The notes under the pieces: model-generated
What the model was told of the DNA's origin: nothing
Database searches by the model: none
The model's input: only the letters and a program-made list of their open reading frames with translations
Source of the DNA: Planctomycetota bacterium
GTDB taxonomy: Bacteria; Planctomycetota; B15-G4
Length of the DNA stretch: 64,000 nt
Assembly (NCBI GenBank): GCA_038212275.1
Contig: JBBQUR010000010.1
Span: 32,001-96,000, forward strand
Reading direction: 5' to 3'
In this document: positions 1,019-16,053 of the stretch, in pieces
How positions within the stretch are numbered: the first letter of the stretch is position 1
How the letters are laid out: each line of letters begins with the position of its first letter
Made by a program: the position numbers and the translations under genes

Positions 1019-3720
<2,702 letters not shown>

Positions 3721-3771
3721 GCCGCGCGATCACACGCGCGCCGGGGAGCTGGAGCAGGACCGCGTGCGCGG

Positions 3772-4269
3772 CTAGCTCCGACCGGCGTCGTCTTCGCGCT
3801 GCGTCGGCTGCGCTGACTGCGCTGACTGCACTGCTTGCGTTGACTGCGTTGACTGCGCTGGATGCGCTGGATGCGCCGGATGCACTGGCTGTGTCGCCTG
3901 TGTCGCCTGTGCCGGAGGCGCGGCCGGCGCCGTCGGCGCCGTGGAGGAGGCTTCGCCGGGAGCCGGAAGCCGCGCAACGTCGTGCCAGTCGATGTCCGCG
4001 TCTTTCGCGAGGTCCAGGTCGTCCTTCATGTCGAGTCCCTGCTTGAACTCGGCGAGGCCAGGCAGCGATCCGATGCCGGCGGGGTCCTGCAGGTTCCTGG
4101 CGGTCTCGCTGGCCAGCGTGCGCAGCTTGCGAACGGTGCGTCCTGCCTTCCGCGCGACGTCCGGGAGGTCGCCGCCGAAGAGCATGATCGCGGCGGCGAC
4201 GACGATCATGAATTCCATCGGCCCGATGTCGAACAGGGCGAGGGACGCGGGCAGGCCGATGACGGACAT
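3772..4269 (-). CDS. TatA/TatB-family twin-arginine translocase subunit with low-complexity tail
   Basis: FDIGPMEFMIVVAAAIMLFGGDLPDVARKAGRTVRKLR (TM helix, FG hinge, amphipathic helix). ATG at 4269 lies 2 nt after the lptD stop. Confidence 0.8.
   Translation of the reverse strand: MSVIGLPASLALFDIGPMEFMIVVAAAIMLFGGDLPDVARKAGRTVRKLRTLASETARNLQDPAGIGSLPGLAEFKQGLDMKDDLDLAKDADIDWHDVARLPAPGEASSTAPTAPAAPPAQATQATQPVHPAHPAHPAQSTQSTQAVQSAQSAQPTQREDDAGRS
3808..3915. repeat. Degenerate 9-bp tandem repeat (about 12 units) in the Tat-family gene tail
   Basis: Units CTGCGCTGA, CTGCGTTGA, ATGCGCTGG and CTGTGTCGC read directly; they encode AQS/TQS/AHP/TQA tripeptides. Confidence 0.85.
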
Positions 4270-4271
4270 GC

Positions 4272-6743
4272 CTAGAAGATACTGTTTTCCGTGGAGCCCG
4301 TCAGACTGTCGTCGCCGACGCCCACCGGCGTGAACGTGATCGTGAAGCTGGTCTCGTTCTTGCTCTGCCCTGTGAAACTCTCCGCGCGGCTGTTGTCCAG
4401 CTCGAAGCCGATGTACCAGCAGTGCGCCTTCTGCCGAAGTCGGACGCCGCTGCGCACCTTGTCGCTCCCGCGCGTGTCCTGCTCGAGGAAGACGGCGACC
4501 GCCCACTTCGGATTGAGTTGCCATTCCACCGTCGTGGTCACGAAGTTGAACTGGCCCGCCACCGCACTGTTCCCGATGGTGAGCTTGCGGCCTTCGCCGA
4601 TGGCGGTGGTGAAGCTCGAATAGCTCGTCTTGTAGTGGCGCGTCTCCGGGTCGAGCGTGGCGCGCCATCGCACCGAGGCGTCCTGCAGCCCGGTGATGTT
4701 GGCGTGCGGAATCCAGCGCGTGTCCACGAGCAGCGGCCCGACGAGATTGTTGTCGTTGAAGGAATTCCTTCCAGGATACAGAGGCAGCAGCAGCTCGGTG
4801 TCGAGCAGCGTCGCGACCTTGTCGTTCTGGTGCGTCTGGATCCGGTCGCGCAGGTCCAGCTTGATCACCTGTCCGCGGTCGAGCTGCTCGACCTGGTCGA
4901 TCTGGATCAACTCATCCGGCCGCTTGTTGAGCGCGAAGAGGTTGAAGTATCCGGCGCGCAGCTCGACGATGCGGCGCAGGCCCTCGATGTTCCACAGTTC
5001 ACTGTGCGCCTCGCCGGTGCCGACATAGGTGCGGCTCCACTGCGCGCCCACGTCGTAGGCGTAGCGCACGTCGGCGCCGCCGTGGAGCGTGTTGCTGAAG
5101 CCGGTGAGGTCCTGGCCCGCCTTGAGCGAGACGCGGTCGCCGTTCGAGAGGTCGTAGGGCAGCGTGACCTCCGCATTGCTGCCGACGCGCAGCACGGTGT
5201 CCGTGGACTGCAGGCCCGAGTCGTCGGCTTCGAGCAGTCGCGCGTTGCTGATGAAGTCCTTCATCGTGAGGAAGGCGTCGCCGACCTGCTCGCCCGCGAC
5301 GCGATGGGTGAGCTCGGGCAGGTACTCGACCTGCGTGTCGAAGTCGTTCAGCCGCGTCTGCGCCAGCACGCCCCACATGTGGTTGTCCACGACGTCGCGG
5401 TACCAGACATACGTCTCCTGGGGCTTCTCCTCGCGGTACTCCTTCTCGTAGTACTCCTGCAGGAAGTTTCCATCGCTGATCGCGGAGACCTCGATGTCCA
5501 GGGTCCTGTGCGCGTCGATCTTCGTGCGGTGCTCGAGGTCGATGCGCCCGCGGTGATTGTCGTTGATGGGCTGGCCCAGGAAATCCTTGCTGGCCGAGTC
5601 GTTGATGTACGAGCCGAACAGCTTTCCGAACGAATCGTCCGTGTGGTAGCTGACCCCGGGCTGCGTGAAGAGTCCGCGCTTGCTGTAGAGGTTCTCGTCG
5701 AGCTCCCATTTCGCGCGCACTTTGCCGTCGTAACCGAAGAGGCCGGCCACGCCCGTGGCGAGGTTCGTCGCGTCGCCCTCCCACGCGGTCTCCAGTTCGT
5801 AACCGAAGCGCGTGCTGCTGCCGAAGCTGAAGCGGTGCAGCAGCAGCTGCCCGTTGTCGACGTTCAGGTTGAGGCCCGGCCACCACATCACGGGGGTCTC
5901 GCCCCAGCAGATGGTGTTGCCCGCCGTCTCCAGGATGCGGCCGTCCGGCGTCGGCGTGAGCGTCGCGTCCGCGGTCTGGATGTGCCAGTGCGGGTTGGCG
6001 TGATCGCAGTTGGTGTAGATCAGCCCCGTCATCTGCGAGCTGCCGTCGCGCAGCCGGTGCAGCAGGTCGTAGCGAGCGACGATCGTCTCGCCGTCCTTCG
6101 ACACGGAGCGCAGCTCGCCCTTCACCACCGTGGCCACGCCCGTCGCGTTGTCGAGCAGGAACGAGCTTGCACCCGTGATCGTCTCGTCGCCCTCGACGAC
6201 GCTCACGTGCCCGTCGAGATAAAGCTCGGCCAGACGCGCATCCTTGACGAACACGTTCCGTTCCGGCGTTCCGGCGCCGTCCTCCGTCGACGGCGGTGCC
6301 TCGGGTGTGGCGTCGGCCTTCGCGTCGGGCAGCATCACGATCACGAGCGTGTCGCCCTTGAGCGTGCGCGCCCCCTGCACCACCTCGACGCCCTCGAGGA
6401 AGACCCAGACAAGGCGGCTGGCGTCCTGCGGGTCCTTGAAAAGGTATTGAGGTCCGAGCGGCCTGATCAGCGTGCCGCCGGCAACGGGGAGGATGCGTGG
6501 CGCGGCGGGTGGAGCGACTGCCTGCGCATCGAGCGCTGCGACGGCGGTGTCGGCCTCCGGTGCGGCGGCGGGAAGCGGCGCCGTCGCAGCTTGCGGAGAC
6601 GCAGGCGTCACGACAGGCTCCTGCTGGGCGATCAGCGTCGGCGCGGCGGCGCACCACGCGCCCAGCAGGAATGCCAGGGCGGTCCGCAGCCCGGAGCGAG
6701 CACGACGTCGGCGGGGCGCGGGGCTGGGCTGCCGTCGTCGCAC
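4272..6743 (-). CDS. lptD: LptD-like LPS assembly outer-membrane beta-barrel protein
   Basis: Signal peptide, OstA-like N-terminal region (LYLDGHV, YTNCDHANPHWHI), SDGNFLQEYY and C-terminal beta-strands (KAHCWYIGFE, TSFTITF). GTG start at 6743 follows AAGGAG. Confidence 0.8.
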   Translation of the reverse strand: MRRRQPSPAPRRRRARSGLRTALAFLLGAWCAAAPTLIAQQEPVVTPASPQAATAPLPAAAPEADTAVAALDAQAVAPPAAPRILPVAGGTLIRPLGPQYLFKDPQDASRLVWVFLEGVEVVQGARTLKGDTLVIVMLPDAKADATPEAPPSTEDGAGTPERNVFVKDARLAELYLDGHVSVVEGDETITGASSFLLDNATGVATVVKGELRSVSKDGETIVARYDLLHRLRDGSSQMTGLIYTNCDHANPHWHIQTADATLTPTPDGRILETAGNTICWGETPVMWWPGLNLNVDNGQLLLHRFSFGSSTRFGYELETAWEGDATNLATGVAGLFGYDGKVRAKWELDENLYSKRGLFTQPGVSYHTDDSFGKLFGSYINDSASKDFLGQPINDNHRGRIDLEHRTKIDAHRTLDIEVSAISDGNFLQEYYEKEYREEKPQETYVWYRDVVDNHMWGVLAQTRLNDFDTQVEYLPELTHRVAGEQVGDAFLTMKDFISNARLLEADDSGLQSTDTVLRVGSNAEVTLPYDLSNGDRVSLKAGQDLTGFSNTLHGGADVRYAYDVGAQWSRTYVGTGEAHSELWNIEGLRRIVELRAGYFNLFALNKRPDELIQIDQVEQLDRGQVIKLDLRDRIQTHQNDKVATLLDTELLLPLYPGRNSFNDNNLVGPLLVDTRWIPHANITGLQDASVRWRATLDPETRHYKTSYSSFTTAIGEGRKLTIGNSAVAGQFNFVTTTVEWQLNPKWAVAVFLEQDTRGSDKVRSGVRLRQKAHCWYIGFELDNSRAESFTGQSKNETSFTITFTPVGVGDDSLTGSTENSIF

Positions 6744-6747
6744 GCGC

Positions 6748-9612
6748 CTACTCCTTGACCCTGATCGTGGAGCGCACGATGCGGGCCTCCTGCGAACGAG
6801 GATGCACTTCCACCTGCGCGGCGTCGACCACGTTGCCTTCCCAGATGAGCCGGCAATGGCCGGTGAGCAGCGCGACATCCCGACCGACGTCCCACGCGAG
6901 TTCGTCGCCGCGCACTTCGATGTCGCCAAGGTGGCACACGACGTCGCCGGTGGCCTGCAGGCTGCGCAGTTCGTCGTGTTCGTCCGTGACGGCGCGCAGC
7001 AGTTCAGTCGCGGCCACGCTGCGCAGCTCGCTGCCCTCGCCCTGCTGCACCGAGGCGTGACCGAGCAGCTCCACCGTGCGCGTGATGCGGTCCGCCTCGA
7101 GCCGGTCACCCGACAGGTGCAGCGGGGCACGCGAGCCGGCCGTGAAGAGCGTGCCGACGGCGCTGCCTTCCGCGCTCAGGTGCTGCGGCGTACCGTCGGG
7201 CGCGGCGCGCACGGCGAGGCGCTGTGTGGCCGCCAGCGCCACGTGCTCCGCCGCCGTCCGGCGCTCGAAGGAACTGGGCCCCTCCAGCACGGCGGTTCCC
7301 GCGCGGCCATCGAGCGCCAGCAACTCGGTGTGAAAGCGGCCCTGCTGATCATTGCCGCCTTCGACGCCGTCGCGCAGCGTGCCGAAGCCGTCGCGTAGCG
7401 CGTCGTCCGCACCCGGCGGAACGGTCCAGTCGAGGCTGCCGCGCGAGGTCAGCACGAAAGCCTCCGCCGCGGGGGTGCGGGCCGCGAAGCTGATGCGCAC
7501 GTCGCTCCCCAGGTGCAGCACGCCGGTGCCGTCGTCCCAGCGCATGCCGGTGCCCGAGCCCGACATGCCCGCGCGCGACCACGCCACGGCCTCGCTGCTG
7601 GTGACAATGGGGGACGAGTCCGCGTTCTCCACGCGCACCTCGGTGCCGTCCACGAGCAGCGGGCCGTCGCGCCCGGCGAGGCTTGCGTGCGACTTGCCGC
7701 GCAGCGTCATCGTGTGCGACGGCCCGTCCACGAGCAGCGTCTCGGTGTCGAGCGTCGAGCCATCGCTCATGCGGCCGGTGACGCGACCGCGCAGCTCGCC
7801 GTGCCCGTCCTGAGCGCTGGTGGCGTGCGGCGGGGCGACCCACGTCAGTCCGCCCGCTCCGTTCAGCTCCGCCGTGAGCTGGTTCTCGGGATCCGTGAAG
7901 CGGATCTGCGCGTCGCGGGTCAGGTCGAGCTGGCCGGTCGTCTCGTCGTAGACCATGCCCGTGCCCACGATGGTCACGCCGTCGCGCGACCACGACACCT
8001 CGTCGGGCGAGGTGACCATGGCACCGGTGCGTTGCATCGACGCCGCCACCAGGCGCGCGGGCAGCACGTCGATCGGCCCGGAGAGCAGCACGACGTCGCC
8101 CTCGGCGGAGACGAGCGCAAGGCGCTGGTGCTCGTCGGCGCCCAGCGTGATGCGCTGCGCCGAGGCCTCGTTGCGCCGGTCATCGGCGACACGCCGGAAC
8201 TGCGCCGAGCCCTCCAGCCGGAACGCGCGCGCGGCGCCGTCGAAGAAGAGCATGTCCGTTGCGAAGCTCGTGCCGTCGGGCAGCGTGCCCGACACCTTGC
8301 CGCGCAGCTCGCCCTGCGCCGCCGCGATCGGGTCCGTCGCCTCCGGCGGGATGGTCCACGTCATGCCACCGGGCGCGAAGACGCGCAGCCCGGCGAGCGG
8401 CTGCTCGCTGTTCTCATCCACGGAGATCTGCGCTTCGCGGTCGTACACGAGCCGACCGACGGCCGTGTCCCAGTCGAGCTGCGTGCCCGTGGCGACGACG
8501 CCCTCCTGGCTCCACGTGACCTCGCCCGGTGCGGTGACCCGCGAGTCCTGCATGCGGATGTGCTCCGTGACCATCCACGCCGGCAGCACCGCGAACGGCG
8601 CGGACACCAGCCGCACGGAACCGTCCGCCTGCGCGATCGCGAAGCGCCCGCTCTCGTCCGCCTCGAGCGCGATGTGCTGCGCCGTGAGCTGCAGCTTGCG
8701 GCCCTTGTCCTCGCGCTCGTAGGCGGCGCGCTCCACCAGCCGGATCGTGCCGGTGCGGCCGTCCACGAGCAGGCTCTGCGCGGCGACGCGCGTGCCGTCC
8801 GACGCGACGCCCGTGACCGGCCCGCGCAACTCGCCCCAGCTCTGGGTGCGCGGATCCTTGCTGCCGGGCGGCAGGTTCCACGTGAGGCCGTCGGGCGCGT
8901 TCAACTCCAGGCCGCGCCGCTCGGGGCTCTCGACGAGCGTGATCGTCGCGTTGCTCGAGAAGTCCAGCCGGCCCGTGTCGCCGTCCCAGGTCATGTCTTC
9001 GCCGACGAGGGACATGTCGTCGCGCGACCAGGTGACGTGGCCCGGCGCCTTCACCAGGGCGCCGTCCACGTCGACGCGCTCCGCGGTCACGTGCGCGGCG
9101 TGGCCGTCGGCCATGAGCATGTCGCCCTGCACGTCGCCGATGAGGGAGAAGCGCTGCGCGTTCATGTGCGAGAGGTCGATACGCACTGCGCCGCCGACGG
9201 AGTCGCCGGTCTCGAAGCGCGCGCTGTTCGAGGAGAGCGTGCCGTTCTCGGCGCCCGTGATGCGATCGAGCAGCCTCACGAACGGGCTCTCGGCGACGAA
9301 CGCGCCCGACGCGTCGGGCCTGCCGGACTTGATCTTCACGCGATAGGCGGGCACTTCGCGCATGCTGCCGTCGGCGCCCTCCACCGGCTGCACGACGTCG
9401 AACTCGACCTCGCCCGGAAACATGACCTGCGTCGCGCGGTCATCCTTCTCGTCCTGGATGCGGAGACTCGGGGCGTCCTTGCCGGCGGCATCGAGCTCGC
9501 CGATGTGCGCGCGCTTGCGGCCGGAAAGAGGGTCGGCAAGCAGATACACCACGGCAAGACCCGCCGTCACCATGCCGGCGAACAGCAGCGCGCGACGAGC
9601 GGCCGGTTTCAC
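6748..9612 (-). CDS. Large membrane-anchored LptC/LptA(OstA)-like protein with four tandem beta-rich repeats
   Basis: N-terminal basic segment plus TM helix; repeated (A/S)P.EV.WS..G....G..M.WD..TG.L and GL.W..PP....GELRG.V.G motifs; lies between kdsC and lptD. Confidence 0.7.
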   Translation of the reverse strand: MKPAARRALLFAGMVTAGLAVVYLLADPLSGRKRAHIGELDAAGKDAPSLRIQDEKDDRATQVMFPGEVEFDVVQPVEGADGSMREVPAYRVKIKSGRPDASGAFVAESPFVRLLDRITGAENGTLSSNSARFETGDSVGGAVRIDLSHMNAQRFSLIGDVQGDMLMADGHAAHVTAERVDVDGALVKAPGHVTWSRDDMSLVGEDMTWDGDTGRLDFSSNATITLVESPERRGLELNAPDGLTWNLPPGSKDPRTQSWGELRGPVTGVASDGTRVAAQSLLVDGRTGTIRLVERAAYEREDKGRKLQLTAQHIALEADESGRFAIAQADGSVRLVSAPFAVLPAWMVTEHIRMQDSRVTAPGEVTWSQEGVVATGTQLDWDTAVGRLVYDREAQISVDENSEQPLAGLRVFAPGGMTWTIPPEATDPIAAAQGELRGKVSGTLPDGTSFATDMLFFDGAARAFRLEGSAQFRRVADDRRNEASAQRITLGADEHQRLALVSAEGDVVLLSGPIDVLPARLVAASMQRTGAMVTSPDEVSWSRDGVTIVGTGMVYDETTGQLDLTRDAQIRFTDPENQLTAELNGAGGLTWVAPPHATSAQDGHGELRGRVTGRMSDGSTLDTETLLVDGPSHTMTLRGKSHASLAGRDGPLLVDGTEVRVENADSSPIVTSSEAVAWSRAGMSGSGTGMRWDDGTGVLHLGSDVRISFAARTPAAEAFVLTSRGSLDWTVPPGADDALRDGFGTLRDGVEGGNDQQGRFHTELLALDGRAGTAVLEGPSSFERRTAAEHVALAATQRLAVRAAPDGTPQHLSAEGSAVGTLFTAGSRAPLHLSGDRLEADRITRTVELLGHASVQQGEGSELRSVAATELLRAVTDEHDELRSLQATGDVVCHLGDIEVRGDELAWDVGRDVALLTGHCRLIWEGNVVDAAQVEVHPRSQEARIVRSTIRVKE

Positions 9613-10130
9613 CGGATGGCTTCCAGGAGCTTGTCCCAGCGGCCGGTGCCGCGCAGCACGTGCTCGACGAGGTCGCGCACGGCGCCGCGGCCGCCGCGCG
9701 ACGGCACGACGAGATCCACGCGGCTGGCCACGTCGCGCGAGCAGTCGGCAGGCGCCGCGGAGAAGCCCGCGCGCTCGAGAATGCGAAGGTCCGGCACGTC
9801 GTCGCCCATGACGGCGACCTGATTCGCCGCGAGGCCGAAGTGCAAGAGGATGTCGTCGAAGGCCGCGGACTTGTCGCGCGCGTTCTCCCAGATGCGCTCG
9901 ATGCGCAGCTCGCGGGCGCGGCGCTGCACCGCGGCGCCGCCGCGCCCCGTGAGGAAGGTGGTGTGGAAGCCCGCGTCGCGCCAGAGCGCGAGGCCCGCGC
10001 CGTCGCGCGTGTGGAAGGCTTTCAGCTCCTCGTTGCCCGCGCCGAGGATCACCGTGCCGTCCGTGAGCACGCCATCCACGTCGAGCACGAGCAGGCGCAG
10101 CGCGTTCAGGTCCGGAGGTCGGGTGCTCAC
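9609..10130 (-). CDS. kdsC: KDO-8-phosphate phosphatase (HAD family)
   Basis: LDVDGVLTDG, F.TRDG.G, LTGR and MGDDVPD motifs; adjacent to kdsD. Confidence 0.92.
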   Translation of the reverse strand: MSTRPPDLNALRLLVLDVDGVLTDGTVILGAGNEELKAFHTRDGAGLALWRDAGFHTTFLTGRGGAAVQRRARELRIERIWENARDKSAAFDDILLHFGLAANQVAVMGDDVPDLRILERAGFSAAPADCSRDVASRVDLVVPSRGGRGAVRDLVEHVLRGTGRWDKLLEAIR

Positions 10131-11131
10131 GGCATCATCCGCAGCTCGAGCAGGTCCTGCACGTCGAGCAGGCCGACAGCGCGACCGTCGTCATCCACCA
10201 CGGGCAGCTGGTCGATCTTGCGCTCGCGCAGAATGCGTCGCGCCTCGCTCACGAGCTGTTCCGGGCGCACGCTGGCGGGCTTCTCGGTCATGACCTCGTC
10301 GATCGGCGCCGAGAGCATGCCGAAGTCGTTCTTCGCGCGTGCCGCGAGCAGGTTGCGGCGCAGGTCGCCGTCGGTGTAGATCCCGGCGAAACGGCCGTCC
10401 GTCGCCACGACGATGACCGCGCCCGGCCGCCCCGGCGTCGAGGTCATGCGTTCCACGGCCTGCGCGAGCGAGCTGCCGGCCGAGATCGTCGGCAGCATCT
10501 CCCCGCGGCGCATGACCTCTTCCACGCGCAGCAGCGAGCGGCCGAGGTCCCCGCCGGGGTGGAAGCGCGCGAACTCCTCGTGCGAAAAGCGGCGTTCGGA
10601 GAGCACGGCCATCGCGAGGGCGTCGCCGAGGGCCAGCATGACGGTGGTGGAGGTGGTGGGCGCGAGTCCCAGCGGGCAGGCCTCGGTGACGCGGCCGTAG
10701 TCGAGCACCACGTCCGCATGCCGCCCGAGCGGCGAATCCGCGTCGGCCGTGATGGCCACCAGCTTCGCGCCGATGTCCTTGAGCGGGCCGACGAGGCGCA
10801 GCAGCTCCGCGGTGGTGCCGCTGTTGGAGAGCGCCAGCACCACGTCGTGGCGCGTGACGCGTCCGAGGTCGCCGTGCAGCGCCTCGGCCGGGTGCAGGTA
10901 GTCGCTCGGCGTGCCGGTGCTGGCAAGCGTCGCGCCGATCTTGCGCGCGATGATCCCGGCCTTGCCGATGCCCGACATGACCACGCGCCCCTCGCACCCC
11001 GCGAGCAGCCGGACCGCCCGTATGAAGTCCGCGTCCAGCGTGGCGCCGAGCAGCGAAAGGGCCGCCGTCTCGGCGTCGAGCAGCGCGCGGGCGCCGGCGA
11101 GGATGTCCTGGTCTGAAGCCACTCTGAGCAC
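10127..11131 (-). CDS. kdsD: Arabinose-5-phosphate isomerase, KpsF/GutQ family (SIS + CBS)
   Basis: GIGKAGIIARKIGATLASTGTPS, HPAEALHGDLG, EACPLGLAPTTST, FARFHPGG and a CBS pair. Confidence 0.95.
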   Translation of the reverse strand: MLRVASDQDILAGARALLDAETAALSLLGATLDADFIRAVRLLAGCEGRVVMSGIGKAGIIARKIGATLASTGTPSDYLHPAEALHGDLGRVTRHDVVLALSNSGTTAELLRLVGPLKDIGAKLVAITADADSPLGRHADVVLDYGRVTEACPLGLAPTTSTTVMLALGDALAMAVLSERRFSHEEFARFHPGGDLGRSLLRVEEVMRRGEMLPTISAGSSLAQAVERMTSTPGRPGAVIVVATDGRFAGIYTDGDLRRNLLAARAKNDFGMLSAPIDEVMTEKPASVRPEQLVSEARRILRERKIDQLPVVDDDGRAVGLLDVQDLLELRMMP

Positions 11132-11245: not shown

Positions 11246-11977
11246 TTGAACACGGAAGATCCCGCCACGCTCGTCGGGGTGCTCGTCATCCTGTTGCTGT
11301 CGCTGAGCTGGCACGAGGCGGCGCACGCCTGGGTGGCCGACCGTCTTGGCGACCCGACCGCGCGCTCGCTGGGCCGGGTGACCCTCAACCCGCTCAAGCA
11401 CCTGGACCCGTTCTTCTCGGTGCTGCTGCCCATCGCGATGTACTTGTCCACCGGCTACGCCTTCGGTGGCGGCAAGCCGGTGCCGATCAACGTGATGAAT
11501 TTCAGGAACCGCGCGCGCGACTTCATGCTCGTGGCGCTGGCCGGGCCCGGCAGCAACATCCTGCTCGCGCTCGGCTTCAGTCTGGTCTTCCTGGTTGCGG
11601 CGAGCACCGGGCTCATGCCGGCGGTCGTGATCCACAGCCCCTACGGCGCCGCCAACGTCATTCCGCCGCAGATGCTGCGGCCCGATCCGGACTCGTTCCT
11701 GCAGTCCTGGCTGGCGACCGGGGTCCTGCTGAACCTCCTGCTCGCCGCCTTCAACATGATCCCGCTGCCGCCGCTGGACGGCAGCCGCGTGGTGGGCTGG
11801 TTGCTGCCGGCCAGCCTGCAGCGCTACTGGTATTCTCTCGACCGCATCGGGATCTTGCTGGTGCTCCTGCTGGTCTTCTATTTCCACGGGAGCTCGTTCA
11901 TCCTGGATCACGTCTTCCGGGCGTATGACGTCCTCGCGAACCACGTGGACGACCTCGTGATGAGGTTCGCCACATGA
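11246..11977 (+). CDS. Site-2 protease family (M50) membrane metalloprotease
   Basis: HEAAH zinc motif, LGDPTA..GR.TLNPL.H.DP, VALAGP.SN and FNMIPLPPLDG. Confidence 0.93.
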   Translation: MNTEDPATLVGVLVILLLSLSWHEAAHAWVADRLGDPTARSLGRVTLNPLKHLDPFFSVLLPIAMYLSTGYAFGGGKPVPINVMNFRNRARDFMLVALAGPGSNILLALGFSLVFLVAASTGLMPAVVIHSPYGAANVIPPQMLRPDPDSFLQSWLATGVLLNLLLAAFNMIPLPPLDGSRVVGWLLPASLQRYWYSLDRIGILLVLLLVFYFHGSSFILDHVFRAYDVLANHVDDLVMRFAT

Positions 11978-12005
11978 ACCCCGCCACTGCGCCAGGGAGC
12001 GCGCC

Positions 12006-12926
12006 ATGACCGAGCAGGTCTTCGAGCTGGAGAACTTCCGCGGGCCCATGGACCTGCTGCTGCACCTCGTGCGCGAGCAGGAGGTGGAGATCACGGAGGT
12101 GGACCTCTCGCGCCTCTGCGACCAGTACCTCAAGGCGCTGGATGTCCTGGAAGACCTCGACATCAACGTCGCGGGAGAGTTCCTGGTCATCGCCAGCACG
12201 CTGCTGCTCATCAAGTCGCGCGCGATCCTGCCGCGCGAGGAGGTGGACCTCAACGAGGAACTCGACCCCGGCGACGAACTCATCCTGCAGCTGCTCGAGT
12301 ACCGCAAGTTCAAGTCGCTGGCGATGGAGCTCGGCCACCGCGGCGAGCAGCGCGCGCTGCGCTTCCCGCGCGGCGCCTCCGAGGTGCCGCCGGAGGAGTT
12401 GCCGACGCTGGAAGAAGTCTCCATCTGGGACCTCGTCGGCACCTTCGCGCGCCTCACCGAGGAGCTGGGCCTCAAGCGCAGCTTCGACACGCTGCGCCAG
12501 GAGAAACCGCTCAAGGACTACCTGCGCGCCGTGCTCGACAACCTGCACGCCCAGCCGCAGTGGACCTTCCGCGAGCTGCTGCTGCATGCCGGGGGGCGCA
12601 CCGGCGTCTTCGGCGTGTTTCTCTCCGTGCTCGAGCTGACCAAGACCGGGCAGATCCGCGTGGAGCAAGGCGAGAACGGCGGCGAGATCGTGCTGCGCCT
12701 GCGCGAGGACCGCGACGAGACGCTGCTCTCGGGCATTTTCCAGGACGCGGCCGCGCCGCTCACGGCCCGGGTGGCCGGAGTCGTCGGCGGCCCGTCCGTC
12801 GAGGAGCCGGAGGGGCCGTCGCTCTTCCCGGAGCTCGCGGCGCCAAAGCCAGCGGCCGGAAGAGCCGCCGGCCCGGCGGCAGACGCCGACTCGGACGACG
12901 AGGACGACTCGGACGACGACGCCTGA
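12006..12926 (+). CDS. scpA: Segregation and condensation protein A (kleisin)
   Basis: FRGPMDLLLHLV, GEFLVIASTLLLIKSR.ILP, LLEYRKFK and FLSVLEL; acidic tail. Confidence 0.9.
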   Translation: MTEQVFELENFRGPMDLLLHLVREQEVEITEVDLSRLCDQYLKALDVLEDLDINVAGEFLVIASTLLLIKSRAILPREEVDLNEELDPGDELILQLLEYRKFKSLAMELGHRGEQRALRFPRGASEVPPEELPTLEEVSIWDLVGTFARLTEELGLKRSFDTLRQEKPLKDYLRAVLDNLHAQPQWTFRELLLHAGGRTGVFGVFLSVLELTKTGQIRVEQGENGGEIVLRLREDRDETLLSGIFQDAAAPLTARVAGVVGGPSVEEPEGPSLFPELAAPKPAAGRAAGPAADADSDDEDDSDDDA

Positions 12927-13006
12927 GGCTCATGCGCGCGGCGCCCGGCCAGCCGCACGACCAGCCCCGAGCGCGGCGCCGTGCCGGGCCGCGACGCGCC
13001 GGACAC

Positions 13007-13035
13007 TTGGCCGCCCCCAGCGAGGACAGTATCGT
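13007..13035 (+). promoter_or_regulatory. Putative sigma70-type promoter for trxA
   Basis: TTGGCC-N17-TATCGT; the same -10 hexamer recurs upstream of the gene at 37726. Confidence 0.45.
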
Positions 13036-13179
13036 GTGCCGCCCTGCACGGAAGGGCCGCGCGATCCCGCCGAAGGGCTATACGTTTCAGGTTCGCACCT
13101 GCGGCTGAAACCCGTGGCCGGCTGCGTGCATCGCAACGTCCCACCTTCCATCCCTGACCGATCGACCCGAGGAGTTCCC

Positions 13180-13521
13180 ATGGCCGGCAACGTTCCCGCC
13201 TTCACCGATGCCAACTTCGACACCGAAGTGCTCAAGTCCAAGTTGCCCGTCGTGGTGGACCTCTGGGCGGACTGGTGCGCGCCGTGCCGCGCCATCGCGC
13301 CGACGATCGAGGCGCTCTCCAAGGAGCTCTCCTCGGTCATCACCATCGGCAAGATGGACATCACCGCCAACCCGAACACGCCCAGCAAGTTCGGCGTGAC
13401 CGCGATCCCGACGATCCTGCTGTTCAACAACGGCAAGGAAGTCGGCCGGCTCATCGGCGGCGGCAAGACGGCCTCCGACTTCAAGCGCGAGTTCAACAAG
13501 GCCTTCGGCGTCTCGGTCTGA
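13180..13521 (+). CDS. trxA: Thioredoxin
   Basis: FTDANFDTEVL, WADWCAPC and FGVTAIPT; GAGGAG RBS before ATG 13180. Confidence 0.95.
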   Translation: MAGNVPAFTDANFDTEVLKSKLPVVVDLWADWCAPCRAIAPTIEALSKELSSVITIGKMDITANPNTPSKFGVTAIPTILLFNNGKEVGRLIGGGKTASDFKREFNKAFGVSV

Positions 13522-13606
13522 GCCTCTTGCCCGGCGGCGCGAGGCATCCGCAACGCGCGGCTGCCCCGCCGCCGGCCCGCAGACCCTGTCCCGGAGTGAG
13601 CGCGCG

Positions 13607-14533
13607 ATGAGGGTCACGCTGCTCGCATCCGCCGAGTTCGCCGTGCCGGTGCTGGAGGCTCTCGTCTCCAGCGGGCACGAGGTCGCGCTCGGGACGCAGC
13701 CCGCGCGGCCGGCTGGCCGCGGGCGACGTGCGGCCTCCACGCCCGTGGCGCTCTGCGCGGCGGAGTTCGGGCTGGCCGCCGAGGAATTGGACGACGTCAA
13801 CGCGCCGGAAGGCCTCGCCTGGCTGACGACCACGCAGCCCGACCTGCTTGCCGTGGTGGCCTTCGGGCAGAAGCTCGGGCCCGCCGTGCGCGCCGCCGCG
13901 CCATGGGGCTGCATCAACCTGCATCCGTCGCTGCTGCCGCGCTGGCGCGGCGCGGCTCCAGTGCCGGCCGCGCTGCTTGCCGGCGACGCGGAGACCGGCG
14001 TGTGCGTCATCGACGTCGTCGAGCGCATGGACGCGGGCGACCTCCTCGCCGTGCGCCGCACGCCGACGGCCGCGAAGACCGCCGGCGAACTGCTCGACGA
14101 GCTGGGACAGACCGGCGCCACGCTGCTTCTGGAGACGCTGGACTCGATCGCGCGCGGTGACTGCGTGCGCACGCCGCAGGACGAAGCCGCGGTGACGCGC
14201 TCGCGCAAGCTCGTGCCCGACGACGGCCGCATCCGCTGGGAACACACCGGCGCAGACGTGGACCGCCGCGTCCGCGCCGTGACGCCGAAGCCGGGCGCGT
14301 TCACGCTGCTCCCGGACGGCACGCGCCTCTCGGTGCTGCGGGGCGCGCCGACCCCGTGCGAACGCGGGCATCTCCCCGGCGAGGTGCTCGACCGCGACGA
14401 CGGCCTCGTCGTCGCCTGCGGCCGCGATGCCTATCGCATCCTCGAGCTGCAGCGCGAGGGCCGCAAGGCCATGGACGTCGTGGACTTCCTGCGCGGCAAC
14501 CCCTTGCCGCCGGGCACGCGGATGGGTCCGTGA
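13607..14533 (+). CDS. fmt: Methionyl-tRNA formyltransferase
   Basis: TQPARPAGRG, INLHPSLLPRWRGAAP, GDAETGV, MDAGD and LQREGRK.M; followed by rsmB. Confidence 0.93.
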   Translation: MRVTLLASAEFAVPVLEALVSSGHEVALGTQPARPAGRGRRAASTPVALCAAEFGLAAEELDDVNAPEGLAWLTTTQPDLLAVVAFGQKLGPAVRAAAPWGCINLHPSLLPRWRGAAPVPAALLAGDAETGVCVIDVVERMDAGDLLAVRRTPTAAKTAGELLDELGQTGATLLLETLDSIARGDCVRTPQDEAAVTRSRKLVPDDGRIRWEHTGADVDRRVRAVTPKPGAFTLLPDGTRLSVLRGAPTPCERGHLPGEVLDRDDGLVVACGRDAYRILELQREGRKAMDVVDFLRGNPLPPGTRMGP

Positions 14534-16053
14534 GCGACACGCCGCGCGACGCCTCCGATGCCCCGCGCGGCAAGGTGCGCAAGCCGGCGCATCGCGGCAG
14601 CGGGCCCGACGGCGTGCGCAGCGAGCGCGCGCGCGCCATCGCGTTGCTGCTCGACGTCGAGCGCGGCGCGTTCGCCGCGGAGCTGCTGGGCCCGCACGAC
14701 GGCCGCTTCGTGCGCGAACTCGTGCTCGGCGTGCTGCGTCGACGCCTGACGCTCGACGCCGTGCACGATGCCTTCGGCCGGCGCCCCGCCACAGACCTCG
14801 ACGACGACGTGCGCGCGGCCGTGCGCATCGGCCTCTACCAGTGGCTCTTCATGGACGGCGTGCCGCCACACGCGGTGGTGTCCGAGACGGTGGGCGCGTT
14901 GCGCCTGGCGGCCGGGGCGGGCGGCACCGGCGCGCGGGCCTGGGTCAACGCCGTGCTGCGCACGGTGCAGCGCGAGAGTCACAAGGTGCCCGAGGGACAG
15001 GACCGCGGCGGAAGCAGCCCGCGCAAGACGCTGCACCGTCCCGGCCGCTGCGTGATCTTCTTCTCGCGGCCCGTGTTCCCGGATCCTGCCGTCGATCGCG
15101 TCGCGTATCTCGCGGCGGCGCACAGCCATCCGGCACTGCTCGTGAAGCGCTGGCTGGCGCAGGTCGGCGAGGAGGCCGCCGTCGCGCGCATGGAGGCGGG
15201 CAATGCTCCGGCGCCGCTGGTGCTGCGTCCGCGCCTGCCGCGCTGCAGCGCCCGCTCGCTGGCCGAGACGCTCATGCACCAGGGCGTGTCCACCGAGCTG
15301 CTGCCGCGGCCGGGCGCGGTCACCGACGCGCTGGCGGTGAAGCCCGGCGCCGAGCGCGCGCTGGCCAGCCGCGCCTTCCGAGACGGCCTGTGCCTCGTGC
15401 AGGATCCCGAGCAGATGGATGCGGCGGAGCTGCTCGCGCCGCGCGCGGGCGAGGTCGTCTGGGATGCCTGCGCCGCGCCGGGTGGCAAGACCGCGCAACT
15501 CGCGGAGCTGCTGGAGATCGCGGAGGCAGGCGCAGTCACGCACGGCCGCATCGTCGCCACGGACGCGCGCGAGGACAGGCTGCAGCGCGTGCGCGAAAAC
15601 GTCGAGCGCCTCGGGCTGCGCGGCGTCGAGGTCGGCGTGCACGAGTTGCTTGGCGGCGGTGCGCCGGCCGGTCGTCCGGCGCGCGGCTTCGATGCGATCC
15701 TGCTCGATGCGCCGTGCAGCAACACGGCGGTGCTCGCCCGGCGCCCCGAGGCGCGGTGGCGGCTCCGCGAAGAGAGCATCGCCAAGCTGGCGTCGCTGCA
15801 GCGGCGCATGCTTGCGGCTGCACACGCGCAGCTCGCCCCCGACGGGCGGCTGGTCTACTCGGTCTGCACTCACGAACCCGAAGAGGGCGCGGCGCACGGC
15901 CTGAGTCCCACGCGATCGCCCTTCGCATGGATCGCGACGCACGCGGAACTCGGCGCGCTCGTCGACGGCTGGGAGCGCGACGGCCTGCTGGCCGGCGACG
16001 CGCCCGCGATCGGCCCGGCTGCGGACGGGCCGTCGCCTGGCGACGACGCGTGA
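14530..16053 (+). CDS. rsmB: 16S rRNA m5C methyltransferase RsmB/Sun (NusB-like + SAM domain)
   Basis: VPPHAVVSETV, VQD, WDACAAPGGKT, LDAPCSNT...RRPE and LVYSVCT; GTG start overlaps the fmt stop. Confidence 0.88.
   Translation: MSDTPRDASDAPRGKVRKPAHRGSGPDGVRSERARAIALLLDVERGAFAAELLGPHDGRFVRELVLGVLRRRLTLDAVHDAFGRRPATDLDDDVRAAVRIGLYQWLFMDGVPPHAVVSETVGALRLAAGAGGTGARAWVNAVLRTVQRESHKVPEGQDRGGSSPRKTLHRPGRCVIFFSRPVFPDPAVDRVAYLAAAHSHPALLVKRWLAQVGEEAAVARMEAGNAPAPLVLRPRLPRCSARSLAETLMHQGVSTELLPRPGAVTDALAVKPGAERALASRAFRDGLCLVQDPEQMDAAELLAPRAGEVVWDACAAPGGKTAQLAELLEIAEAGAVTHGRIVATDAREDRLQRVRENVERLGLRGVEVGVHELLGGGAPAGRPARGFDAILLDAPCSNTAVLARRPEARWRLREESIAKLASLQRRMLAAAHAQLAPDGRLVYSVCTHEPEEGAAHGLSPTRSPFAWIATHAELGALVDGWERDGLLAGDAPAIGPAADGPSPGDDA

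Follow-up and report, generated by a model that had tools for sequence, protein, structure and literature searches.

A candidate covalent LptC-LptA bridge encoded between kdsC and lptD in a Planctomycetota bacterium

Can the parts of the Lpt bridge that span the periplasm, LptC and LptA, be supplied by a single gene? The window analysed here is a 64,000-nucleotide stretch of the genome of a Planctomycetota bacterium (contig JBBQUR010000010.1, positions 32,001 to 96,000 of the forward strand), in which a sequence-only reading had picked out a 954-aa open reading frame at 6748..9612 and proposed that it encodes an extra-long, single-chain LPS transport bridge. The reading frame is real and lies on the minus strand, and we consider it likely, with a probability of about three in four, that the gene is a combined LptC and LptA, one polypeptide forming the periplasmic part of the Lpt bridge.

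In E. coli, how many LptA copies cross the periplasm, and whether they form a stable or a dynamic bridge, is debated. A natural chain of LptC and about five further modules would be a defined, countable bridge that can be expressed, imaged, shortened and lengthened. Moreover, the Lpt system of Planctomycetes is called "largely reduced" in a passage of PMC8871954, a view that the reading given here would correct, in that LptA and LptC would exist as a fusion whose divergence hides it from standard searches.

Gene order and the lptD junction

The locus is a run of four genes, with the following features (window coordinates):

10127..11131, minus strand: arabinose-5-phosphate isomerase of the kdsD/kpsF type, 334 aa, first in the coupled run (TIGR00393)
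9609..10130, minus strand: kdsC, Kdo-8-phosphate phosphatase, 173 aa (TIGR01670)
6748..9612 (stop codon included), minus strand: bridge gene P0001, encoding a 954-aa TM-anchored LptC-(LptA)n-like protein (open reading frame)
6751..6756, minus strand: Shine-Dalgarno sequence for lptD, AAGGAG, within the final two sense codons of the bridge gene
4272..6743, minus strand: lptD-like outer-membrane translocon gene, 823 aa (partial PRK03761 match, PF03968, Atlas)
5844..6488, minus strand: LptD N-terminal jellyroll, residues 86-300, presumed docking site (synteny; alignment)

The bridge gene thus lies between kdsC and lptD, as first described, and occupies the lptC/lptA slot; in E. coli, lptC likewise comes right after kdsD-kdsC. 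The KpsF/KdsD protein scores 299 bits against TIGR00393 (KpsF/GutQ; cut-off 203.7) and has SIS and CBS domains, and KdsC scores 136.8 bits against TIGR01670 (cut-off 106.95). The kdsD stop overlaps the kdsC start by 4 nt (GTGA), the kdsC stop and the GTG start of the bridge gene share the same 4-nt overlap (GTGA), and the bridge-lptD junction reads ...GTC AAG GAG TAG GCGC GTG..., with the GTG start of lptD 4 nt beyond the bridge gene stop. Judged from these junctions, kdsD, kdsC, the bridge gene and lptD are predicted to be translationally coupled. Homologs align from residues 1-6 onward, which supports GTG as the start codon of the bridge gene. A locus search seeded with a 10-sequence family alignment returned one locus.

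The lptD-like product matches NCBIfam PRK03761 at 31.2 bits (E 6.4e-8), a partial match far under the cut-off of 683, and PF03968 on its N-domain at 12.4 bits; it has an Atlas feature score of 0.98 to Planctomycetota clusters with PF04453 and a signal-peptide-like N-terminus, and a search of PDB sequences at E up to 1 gave no matches. Twelve loci, L018 and 11 from the family, were compared: in 11 of them the sequence that comes next after the bridge gene encodes the LptD N-domain (mean column identity 54% in the alignment), and the remaining one, L021, stops at a contig edge.

Repeats, modules and predicted structure

From its N-terminus onward, the bridge protein can be divided as follows:

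9541..9606, minus strand: N-terminal transmembrane helix, residues 3-24 (AF2 helix; superposes with LptC chains)
9427..9540, minus strand: linker, residues 25-62, probably flexible (pLDDT <50)
9049..9426, minus strand: module 1, LptC-like jellyroll, residues 63-188 (superposition on LptC 9dor_C)
8533..9048, minus strand: repeat R1, LptA-type jellyroll, residues 189-360 (BLASTP against R2; LptH 4uu4_A)
8011..8532, minus strand: repeat R2, residues 361-534 (BLASTP; module HMMs; LptC and LptA superpositions)
7600..8010, minus strand: repeat R3, a shorter unit, residues 535-671 (BLASTP against R1 and R2)
7135..7599, minus strand: repeat R4, residues 672-826 (BLASTP against R1; repeat tree)
6751..7134, minus strand: module 6, C-terminal LptA-like jellyroll, residues 827-954 (LptA/LptH superpositions; repeat HMMs)

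The four tandem repeats recognised earlier begin at residues 189 (APGHVTWSRD), 361 (APGEVTWSQE), 535 (SPDEVSWSRD) and 672 (SSEAVAWSRA), with the same spacings of 172, 174 and 137 aa, and the second motif reported in each, (G/S)(L/M)(T/D)W..PP, falls at residues 242, 416, 588 and 726. Unit-against-unit BLASTP gives pairwise identities of 34-41% among R1-R4, the best pair being R1-R2 (E 1.7e-39) and the weakest R2-R4 (E 1.3e-16); R3 matches R1 at E 5.4e-23 and R2 at 3.0e-23, and R4 matches R1 at 1.4e-18. By these scores the similarity of R1-R4 is far beyond chance, and module HMMs built from the family match all four units (1e-21 to 1e-70). Repeat HMMs M2, M3 and M5 also match residues 832-895 (1e-8 to 3e-4), and module 6 is therefore taken as a diverged copy of the repeat unit; M4 gave 0.18 on module 6, which is not significant. 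Self-BLASTP of the entire 954-aa protein yields the diagonal only, and no tandem repeat of matching period is left in the DNA of the gene. A repeat tree over 12 proteins clusters the repeats by position and not by species – R4 forms one clade over all 12 (support 93/84) – which rules out a recent, species-specific expansion.

General family profiles recognise the protein in part. It scores 31 bits against PF06835 (cut-off 21), 28.6 bits against PF03968 (cut-off 20.4) and 39.6 bits against TIGR04409 (cut-off 38), and 21.2 bits against the LptA equivalog HMM TIGR03002, below its cut-off of 71.7. The LptC matches cover the last ~40 profile positions only (134-171 of PF06835 and 139-179 of TIGR04409) and fall at residues 532-569 (Pfam) and 531-571 (NCBIfam), at the start of R3 and outside module 1. 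LptA chains in the PDB are reached weakly by the family profile (E 0.0037-0.09).

The full-length AF2 model (pLDDT 86.7, pTM 0.61) places a helix at residues 3-24, in agreement with the single N-terminal TM anchor of the sequence-only reading, followed by 66 strands spread over residues 69-948. In the TM helix region, G18, L25 and D27 do not vary among the 10 aligned family sequences. The N-terminus and first jellyroll align with full LptC chains including their TM helix (6mit_C, Z 12.8; 6mjp_C, Z 12.6). Module 1, which structurally extends to about residue 211-237 in this model, matches LptC 9dor_C at Z 8.7 (rmsd 3.4 Å, 126 of 130 residues aligned, model residues 61-211) and the LptG jellyroll 8frl_G at Z 5.5.

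A sub-model of residues 189-575 (pLDDT 91.5, pTM 0.83) was compared with 48,161 PDB representatives, and its top four matches are all Lpt jellyrolls. LptH (4uu4_A) superposes on residues 197-339, in R1, at Z 15.3 (rmsd 1.6 Å, 122 residues aligned), and the sub-model reaches Z 14.6 with the LptD N-domain, 14.2 with LptA and 13.8 with LptD; LptC comes below the top four, twice at Z 12.1. R2, in the second half of the sub-model, is matched by LptC (6mit_C, Z 12.1) and LptA (8onu, Z 8.5). The OstA-like end had also been seen correctly: residues 827-954 match LptA 2r19_A at Z 12.9 (rmsd 2.5 Å, 122 of 135 aligned), and LptH matches this C-terminal module at Z 12.6 (rmsd 2.3 Å). Foldseek assigns probability 1.00 to LptD, LptC and LptH chains with the sub-model. 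With the whole model it finds LptD chains at probability 1.00 amid mixed LptD, LRP and teneurin matches with rmsd >40 Å, global alignments that are usable only for those LptD chains. Structure prediction and Foldseek of the repeats, the check proposed with the original reading, thus lead to LptH, LptA, the LptD N-domain and LptC, and neither a beta-helix nor a propeller, folds that would have spoken against a bridge, is among the matches to the model.

What stands of the original bridge proposal is one TM-anchored chain with an LptC-like module followed by LptA-type jellyrolls, as the AF2 superpositions indicate, and a covalent LptC-(LptA)~5 bridge is well supported. In the fashion of LptC, whose helix sits between LptF and LptG and whose jellyroll docks on LptF, the TM helix would hold the protein in the inner membrane next to LptB2FG, the LPS extractor, and module 1 would receive LPS. 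The four LptA-type jellyrolls of ~137-174 aa and the C-terminal LptA-like jellyroll would extend the beta-ladder head-to-tail, and the last module would pass LPS to the N-terminal jellyroll of LptD, the product of the next coupled gene. Such a protein would be expected to bind LptFG and LptD and to offer a continuous hydrophobic groove with LPS as its cargo, and, scaled from E. coli five-LptA models, the distance that it covers from one membrane centre to the other might be roughly 33-37 nm. A chain of this kind may suit the wide periplasm reported for planctomycetes, as the sequence-only reading suggested.

The rest of the pathway and competing explanations

The genome (completeness 91.11%) encodes LptB (337.6 bits) and LptF/G (184 and 142 bits), with lptB and lptFG on other contigs than the bridge gene, as well as LpxC (298 bits) and the Kdo transferase WaaA (178 bits). 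Separate lptA and lptC genes, which the sequence-only reading had suggested looking for, are not detectable in this 91%-complete genome: PF03968, PF06835, TIGR03002 and the protein query match only the bridge gene and lptD, and the lptB neighbourhood is without LptA or LptC. Run on 33,101 six-frame ORFs, six lineage-specific module HMMs find the bridge gene only; the E values that come next are 0.033 and 0.2.

It is nonetheless conceivable that the protein is an elongated LptC only, and that a separate LptA or adaptor has been missed, either as too divergent or in the unassembled ~9% of the genome; a stand-alone lptA could sit in the missing part because the genome is only 91% complete. General models could overlook a small, divergent LptA, given that the protein's own modules barely pass the Pfam thresholds, and in nine genomes of the phylum sample PF03968 matches open frames no longer than 413 aa, a length that would suit a stand-alone LptA. 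However, the lineage-specific HMMs find nothing else among the 33,101 ORFs, the end of the chain already superposes on LptA, lptD follows directly in what looks like translational coupling, and the arrangement is kept in all 15 other genomes of the family. We regard this explanation as unlikely.

Somewhat less probable again is a bridge of Lpt type that carries something other than LPS, or more than LPS: lipoproteins, for instance, or a different glycolipid, as has been suggested for the Lpt homologues of Borrelia. Parts of a Borrelia preprint (10.1101/2022.12.21.521298) tie the Lpt machinery to surface lipoprotein transport, a link also made in a passage of PMC12065857, and a search of the 91%-complete genome for LptE (PF04390) came back empty at E up to 1. 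Against this, the bridge gene shares its coupled run with kdsD and kdsC, both Kdo genes. With LpxC and the Kdo transferase present, lipid A-Kdo would be made and therefore need an exporter, for which no other candidate bridge was found.

Finally, the protein could serve mainly as a structural tether or spacer that fixes how far apart the two membranes lie, or it could be a beta-ladder scaffold of another sort, either MORN-like or a phospholipid conduit of the AsmA/TamB type, that merely resembles Lpt proteins. A long beta-ladder alone is not specific, because beta-hairpin ladders of MORN, junctophilin, CPAP and OspA match the repeat region at Z 9-13 (MORN1 13.1, junctophilin 11.9, CPAP G-box 9.7), and repeats may reach middling-to-high Z through a common arrangement alone. 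This explanation is very improbable: Lpt matches rank first, over near-whole domains and at lower rmsd (1.6-2.9 Å over 122 residues), whereas the MORN-type alignments skip across at least 320 residues, TamB (TamAB chain 9xdc_A) reaches only Z 5.1 with the 189-575 sub-model, no MORN or AsmA/TamB family turns up in Pfam at E up to 1, and the operon context is Lpt-specific.

Relatives, known systems and the number of modules

The combined LptC and LptA favoured here is readily set against its known counterparts. With LptC (PF06835/TIGR04409; chain C of 6MIT, 6MJP and 9DOR) it shares a single N-terminal TM helix followed by a beta-jellyroll, but it is 954 aa long where E. coli LptC has about 190, has a ~38-residue low-confidence linker after the TM helix and carries five extra covalent jellyroll modules; its HMM matches are partial and lie on repeat starts, and lptB is not adjacent. 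With LptA and Pseudomonas LptH (2R19, 4UU4) it shares the fold (Z 12.9-15.3, rmsd 1.6-2.9 Å, ~122 residues aligned), and its modules follow one another in the head-to-tail order proposed for LptA oligomers. In contrast to LptA and LptH, the modules are covalent, fixed in number and membrane-anchored, without signal peptide or free monomer, and the units measure 137-174 aa, of which only ~122 residues superpose on LptA/LptH chains of 135 and 143 residues. Since the modules sit inside one 954-aa TM-anchored chain, their working is better called LptA-like than canonical LptA.

Fusion of the two proteins is functional when engineered: according to a passage of PMC12065857, an E. coli LptC-LptA fusion forms a stable complex with LptB2FG and delivers LPS to LptD in vitro in an ATP-dependent manner. 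That fusion is man-made for biochemistry and has one LptA module, whereas the present protein occurs naturally, with about five LptA-type modules; literature searches turned up no account of natural fused LptC-LptA forms. Published E. coli bridge models contain 1-5 LptA, and LptC with ~5 modules is therefore at the upper end of that range and not beyond it, which leaves the label "extra-long" uncertain.

The single-chain architecture is not unique to this genome, which tempers the interest of the present case: it is widespread in the phylum, and look-alikes appear in the database annotations of other phyla. A collinear full-length copy is present in each of the 15 further genomes of the family, a sibling family has 980- and 1150-aa versions followed by lptD, and versions across other Planctomycetota range over 657-1150 aa. 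A relative of 869 aa has LptC and four LptD_N stretches (125 bits), and one of 657 aa has LptC (64 bits) and three LptD_N stretches. Atlas look-alikes are annotated in Acidobacteriota and Aminicenantota, and Atlas clusters of 616-730 aa score 0.92. Longer fused relatives, of 1671-4770 aa, were not found, a weak negative.

These fused LptC+LptD_N proteins of other Planctomycetota, Acidobacteriota and Aminicenantota have the same TM anchor, LptC-like part and several OstA/LptA modules, and they likewise often stand right behind kdsD-kdsC. The present family differs in a divergence that leaves it hardly recognisable to Pfam, in its module number and in its four middle modules, which are much more alike; elsewhere, inter-module identity is 25-32% in three of seven sampled lineages and undetectable by BLASTP in the other four. 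An hhalign comparison of the family with the Pfam-clear 657-aa relative gave a probability of 1.65% (E 0.03) and thus yielded no sequence-level module map between lineages.

Module number is constant within the family and differs between lineages, a pattern compatible with the earlier idea of a molecular ruler. It is possible, if rather doubtful, that module number is a heritable ruler of the envelope: the mid-section of the bridge would have been rebuilt in an ancestor of the family, through a four-fold duplication in tandem of a single LptA-type unit of ~172 aa, and the exact number would then have been kept throughout the radiation, while other Planctomycetota settled at ~4 to ~7. If so, the Lpt bridge would work at a fixed stoichiometry (here LptC and five LptA-type modules), with no need for LptA to oligomerise dynamically, and lineages with a wider periplasm would be expected to carry more modules. 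The observed range of module number, from ~4 to ~7 across lineages, provides relatives for a comparative test of bridge length against periplasm width.

The candidate bridge gene and its operon

The gene for the 954-aa TM-anchored protein (the bridge protein) is where the sequence-only reading had placed it, and of the length it gave, with minus strand as its orientation. It lies third in a minus-strand series of five genes:

10127-11131, minus: kdsD/kpsF (TIGR00393, 299 bits)
9609-10130, minus: kdsC (TIGR01670, 136.8 bits)
6748-9612, minus: bridge gene (GTG start, 954 aa)
4272-6743, minus: LptD-like gene (823 aa), directly after the bridge gene
3772-4668, minus: TatA-like gene (298-aa ORF), after lptD (TatA/B/E domain, 24.5 bits)

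GTGA overlaps are present at the kdsD/kdsC and kdsC/bridge-gene junctions, lptD starts 4 nt past the bridge-gene stop, and the AAGGAG ahead of lptD sits within the last two sense codons of the bridge gene. The 823-aa product is called LptD-like from a partial match to NCBIfam LptD (31.2 bits, E 6.4e-8), from a weak match of its N-domain to PF03968, and from its Atlas feature scores, which are 0.98 for Planctomycetota clusters carrying PF04453; a sequence search of the PDB with this protein found nothing. In its translation, some 45 Ala/Pro-rich, low-complexity residues separate a signal-peptide-like N-terminus from the jellyroll, and the N-domain carries a ~20-residue acidic/Pro-rich insert; these features, within residues ~42-200 (window ~6140-6620, minus), could give extra reach on the outer-membrane side. 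The TatA/B/E domain is in the second half of the 298-aa ORF, whose true start is probably internal, and tandem repeats of 9 nt and 27 nt (3808-3911; TRF scores 46-88) encode the Q/S/T/A/P-rich C-terminal tail of the product.

The window opens on the plus strand with the 3′ part of dnaN (1-933; DNA_pol3_beta_2 and _3, 87.9 and 59.2 bits) and continues with gyrB (1330-3720; DNA_gyraseB, 193 bits), and the operon may therefore be near the replication origin region; cumulative GC skew is flat over 1-20 kb. Divergent from the operon, 11246-16053 (plus) encodes an M50-family peptidase, scpA, thioredoxin, fmt (formyltransferase) and rsmB, which are ordinary housekeeping genes unconnected to the bridge finding.

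Repeats and predicted fold

The four tandem repeats of the sequence-only reading, R1-R4, begin at residues 189, 361, 535 and 672, with the spacing it described, and its second motif (W..PP) recurs in each, at residues 242, 416, 588 and 726. The units are 34-41% identical in unit-against-unit BLASTP (R1-R2 E 1.7e-39, R1-R3 5e-23, R1-R4 1e-18, R2-R3 3e-23, R2-R4 1e-16, R3-R4 3e-16), a likeness that by these scores is beyond chance. Per-unit family HMMs match all four (E 1e-21 to 1e-70), and because three of the family-built module HMMs (M2, M3 and M5) also match residues 832-895 (E 1e-8 to 3e-4; 0.18 for M4), the C-terminal module is a diverged copy of the repeat unit. The G/W/P/G skeleton of both motifs is kept in the consensus of 131 units from 33 proteins; a DNA-level tandem repeat was sought in the bridge gene and none is left. 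The protein exceeds the Pfam cut-offs for LptC (31 bits vs 21) and LptD_N/OstA (28.6 vs 20.4) and the NCBIfam cut-off for LptC (39.6 vs 38), but not that for LptA (21.2 vs 71.7). The LptC matches are confined to the final ~40 positions of the profile and lie at repeat starts, which thus resemble the C-terminal strands of LptC.

A full-length AlphaFold2 model, with 33 full-length relatives as input (mean pLDDT 86.7, pTM 0.61), has a helix at residues 3-24, a low-confidence linker at 25-62 and, from residue 69 to residue 948, 66 beta-strands. Compared against 48,161 PDB representatives, residues 827-954 match LptA 2r19_A (Z 12.9, rmsd 2.5 Å, 122/135 residues) and LptH (Z 12.6, rmsd 2.3 Å), and the N-terminus matches LptC chains that include the TM helix (6mit_C, Z 12.8; 6mjp_C, Z 12.6), with a large rmsd because of helix orientation; the first jellyroll alone matches LptC 9dor_C (Z 8.7, rmsd 3.4 Å, 126/130). 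The middle of this model mostly matched hairpin ladders (MORN, junctophilin, CPAP and OspA; Z 9-11), and residues 189-575 were therefore modelled on their own, with related loci supplying 12 sequences (pLDDT 91.5, pTM 0.83). Lpt jellyrolls take the top four places among the PDB matches of the sub-model: LptH 4uu4_A (Z 15.3, rmsd 1.6 Å over 122 aligned residues, at protein residues 197-339), LptD N-domain 8h1r_A (Z 14.6), LptA 2r19_A (Z 14.2) and LptD 5iv9_A (Z 13.8), with LptC 6mjp_C and 6mit_C next (Z 12.1 each). MORN1 scores Z 13.1 through an alignment that jumps across a 320-residue range, and Foldseek concurs with the Lpt assignment (LptD, LptC and LptH, probability 1.00). The Lpt-type fold anticipated from sequence is thus borne out in the sub-model, on which TamB reaches Z 5.1. 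With Lpt jellyrolls as the best structural matches, R1-R4 are predicted to be LptA-type jellyrolls, and the chain as modelled consists of about six: an LptC-like module 1, R1-R4, and a C-terminal LptA-like module. The quasi-periodicity of the ladder makes the exact limits of the modules ambiguous.

A probable single-chain bridge and its distribution

The genome (4.65 Mb, 40 contigs, 91.11% complete) was searched for alternative components. With an E limit of 1, PF03968, PF06835 and TIGR03002 match only the bridge gene and the LptD N-domain, and the bridge protein has no paralog in this 91.11%-complete assembly. Because general models barely detect the bridge family, six lineage-specific module HMMs were also run against all 33,101 six-frame ORFs of at least 70 aa, and among these matched the bridge gene alone (next best E 0.033 and 0.2). 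Across the Pfam, NCBIfam and module HMM searches of the 91.11%-complete genome no canonical lptC or lptA was detected elsewhere, as the sequence-only reading would have it. LptB (contig C1, 337.6 bits) and LptF/LptG (contig C15, 184.2 and 142.4 bits) are encoded apart from the bridge operon, and lptB is flanked by signal peptidase and response regulator genes, not by LptA or LptC. LpxC (298 bits) and a Kdo transferase domain (178 bits) are present, and therefore lipid A-Kdo is made. LptE (PF04390, E up to 1) had no match in the 91%-complete genome; it may be absent, replaced or too divergent.

The predicted fold, gene context, absence of alternative genes and conservation all back the core proposal of a single-chain LptC-(LptA)n bridge, putatively feeding the adjacent LptD, to which we assign a probability of roughly three in four. 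Full-text literature searches turned up no account of multi-module LptC-LptA chains in nature. In the passages concerned, Speth 2012 gives LptD, BamA and TonB as sole markers (PMC3422733), the Planctomycetes Lpt system is called "largely reduced" (PMC8871954), and an engineered LptC-LptA fusion is functional in vitro (PMC12065857). The bridge protein is a variant of the known Lpt system, within a widespread architecture of which we found no description in print.

A word-index search returned nine relatives (906-975 aa) and an exhaustive search of 1.84 billion representatives 43, most of 860-975 aa with the shorter ones partial; one has a named record, an "uncultured Phycisphaerales bacterium" MAG. 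Within the GTDB class (42 genomes, the window's own included), all 15 other genomes of the same family have a collinear copy, and the sibling families have weak matches only, in long genes (f3 10/12, f2 2/5, f4 0/1, f5 0/8). In two f3 genomes, the genes for proteins of 1150 and 980 aa have a SIS+CBS (KpsF-type) gene on one side and an LptD gene (PF04453, 34.9 and 27.7 bits) on the other. In the phylum sample, PF03968 matches (E up to 1e-3) occur in 35 of 121 genomes, eight with 2-4 matches in one frame of 642-985 aa. All five phylum loci inspected encode a protein starting with a hydrophobic segment (first 40 residues read): 869 aa (LptC plus four LptD_N stretches, 125 bits), 957 aa, 657 aa (LptC, 64 bits, plus three stretches), 1085 aa and 660 aa. 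A KdsC-like HAD gene immediately precedes the gene for the 657-aa protein, and the gene for the 1085-aa protein follows a KpsF-type gene. Look-alikes in the Atlas include Aminicenantota and Acidobacteriota clusters with LptC+LptD_N, of 616-730 aa (score 0.92). From this distribution the fused plan is common in Planctomycetota, with roughly 4 to 7 modules, and probably extends beyond the phylum.

Nine of the 35 PF03968-positive genomes have a match in an open frame no longer than 413 aa (e.g. G115:C88, G052:C223, G099:C102 and G146:C291, as genome:contig), and so some lineages may have stand-alone LptA-sized genes beside the fused form or in its place. Linkage to lptD is not universal in the phylum, since in one ~660-aa-type lineage (locus L038) the bridge gene is followed not by lptD but by a gene for a 639-aa HEAT-repeat and glycerophosphodiester phosphodiesterase protein (2801-4720, minus; HEAT_2 202 bits, GDPD 83.9 bits).

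Repeat history and span

The 33 full-length relatives differ little in unit length (R1 163-188 aa, R2 165-180 aa, R3 129-156 aa apart from a 797-aa sequence with 38 aa aligned), and R4 and the C-terminal module are trimmed in relatives of 866-890 aa. In a tree of 48 units (first 135 positions each) from 12 of the 33 proteins, spanning the identity range, units cluster by position and not by species. R4 forms a single clade in 12/12 proteins (support 93/84; 94% of bootstrap trees), and R2 (98/99) and R3 (84/92) are clades among the seven closer proteins, the five most divergent being unresolved. This clustering argues that the four-fold duplication is older than the family's radiation, the number having been kept since. 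In other sampled lineages units are 25-32% identical in 3/7 proteins and give nothing by BLASTP in 4/7, and the family's module HMMs score 1e-8 or worse there; because its own units are much more alike, we infer a duplication specific to the family's ancestor.

The chain is long, as the sequence-only reading had it, and counts as "extra-long" only on the assumption that few LptA are used in E. coli, since E. coli models with five LptA span a similar scale. An E. coli modelling preprint (10.1101/2023.04.28.538765) gives, in the part concerned, about 35 Å per LptA and inner-to-outer-membrane centre distances of 185, 220, 260, 290 and 325 Å for one to five LptA, the true number in E. coli being, according to it, not established. 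Scaled from these models, the centre-to-centre span of LptC plus five LptA-type modules, three of them exceeding LptA in size, would be roughly 33-37 nm. A Borrelia preprint includes a model of LptC-LptA-LptD_N at about 185 Å, and a recent review describes the planctomycete periplasm as extended or enlarged (PMC12673574).
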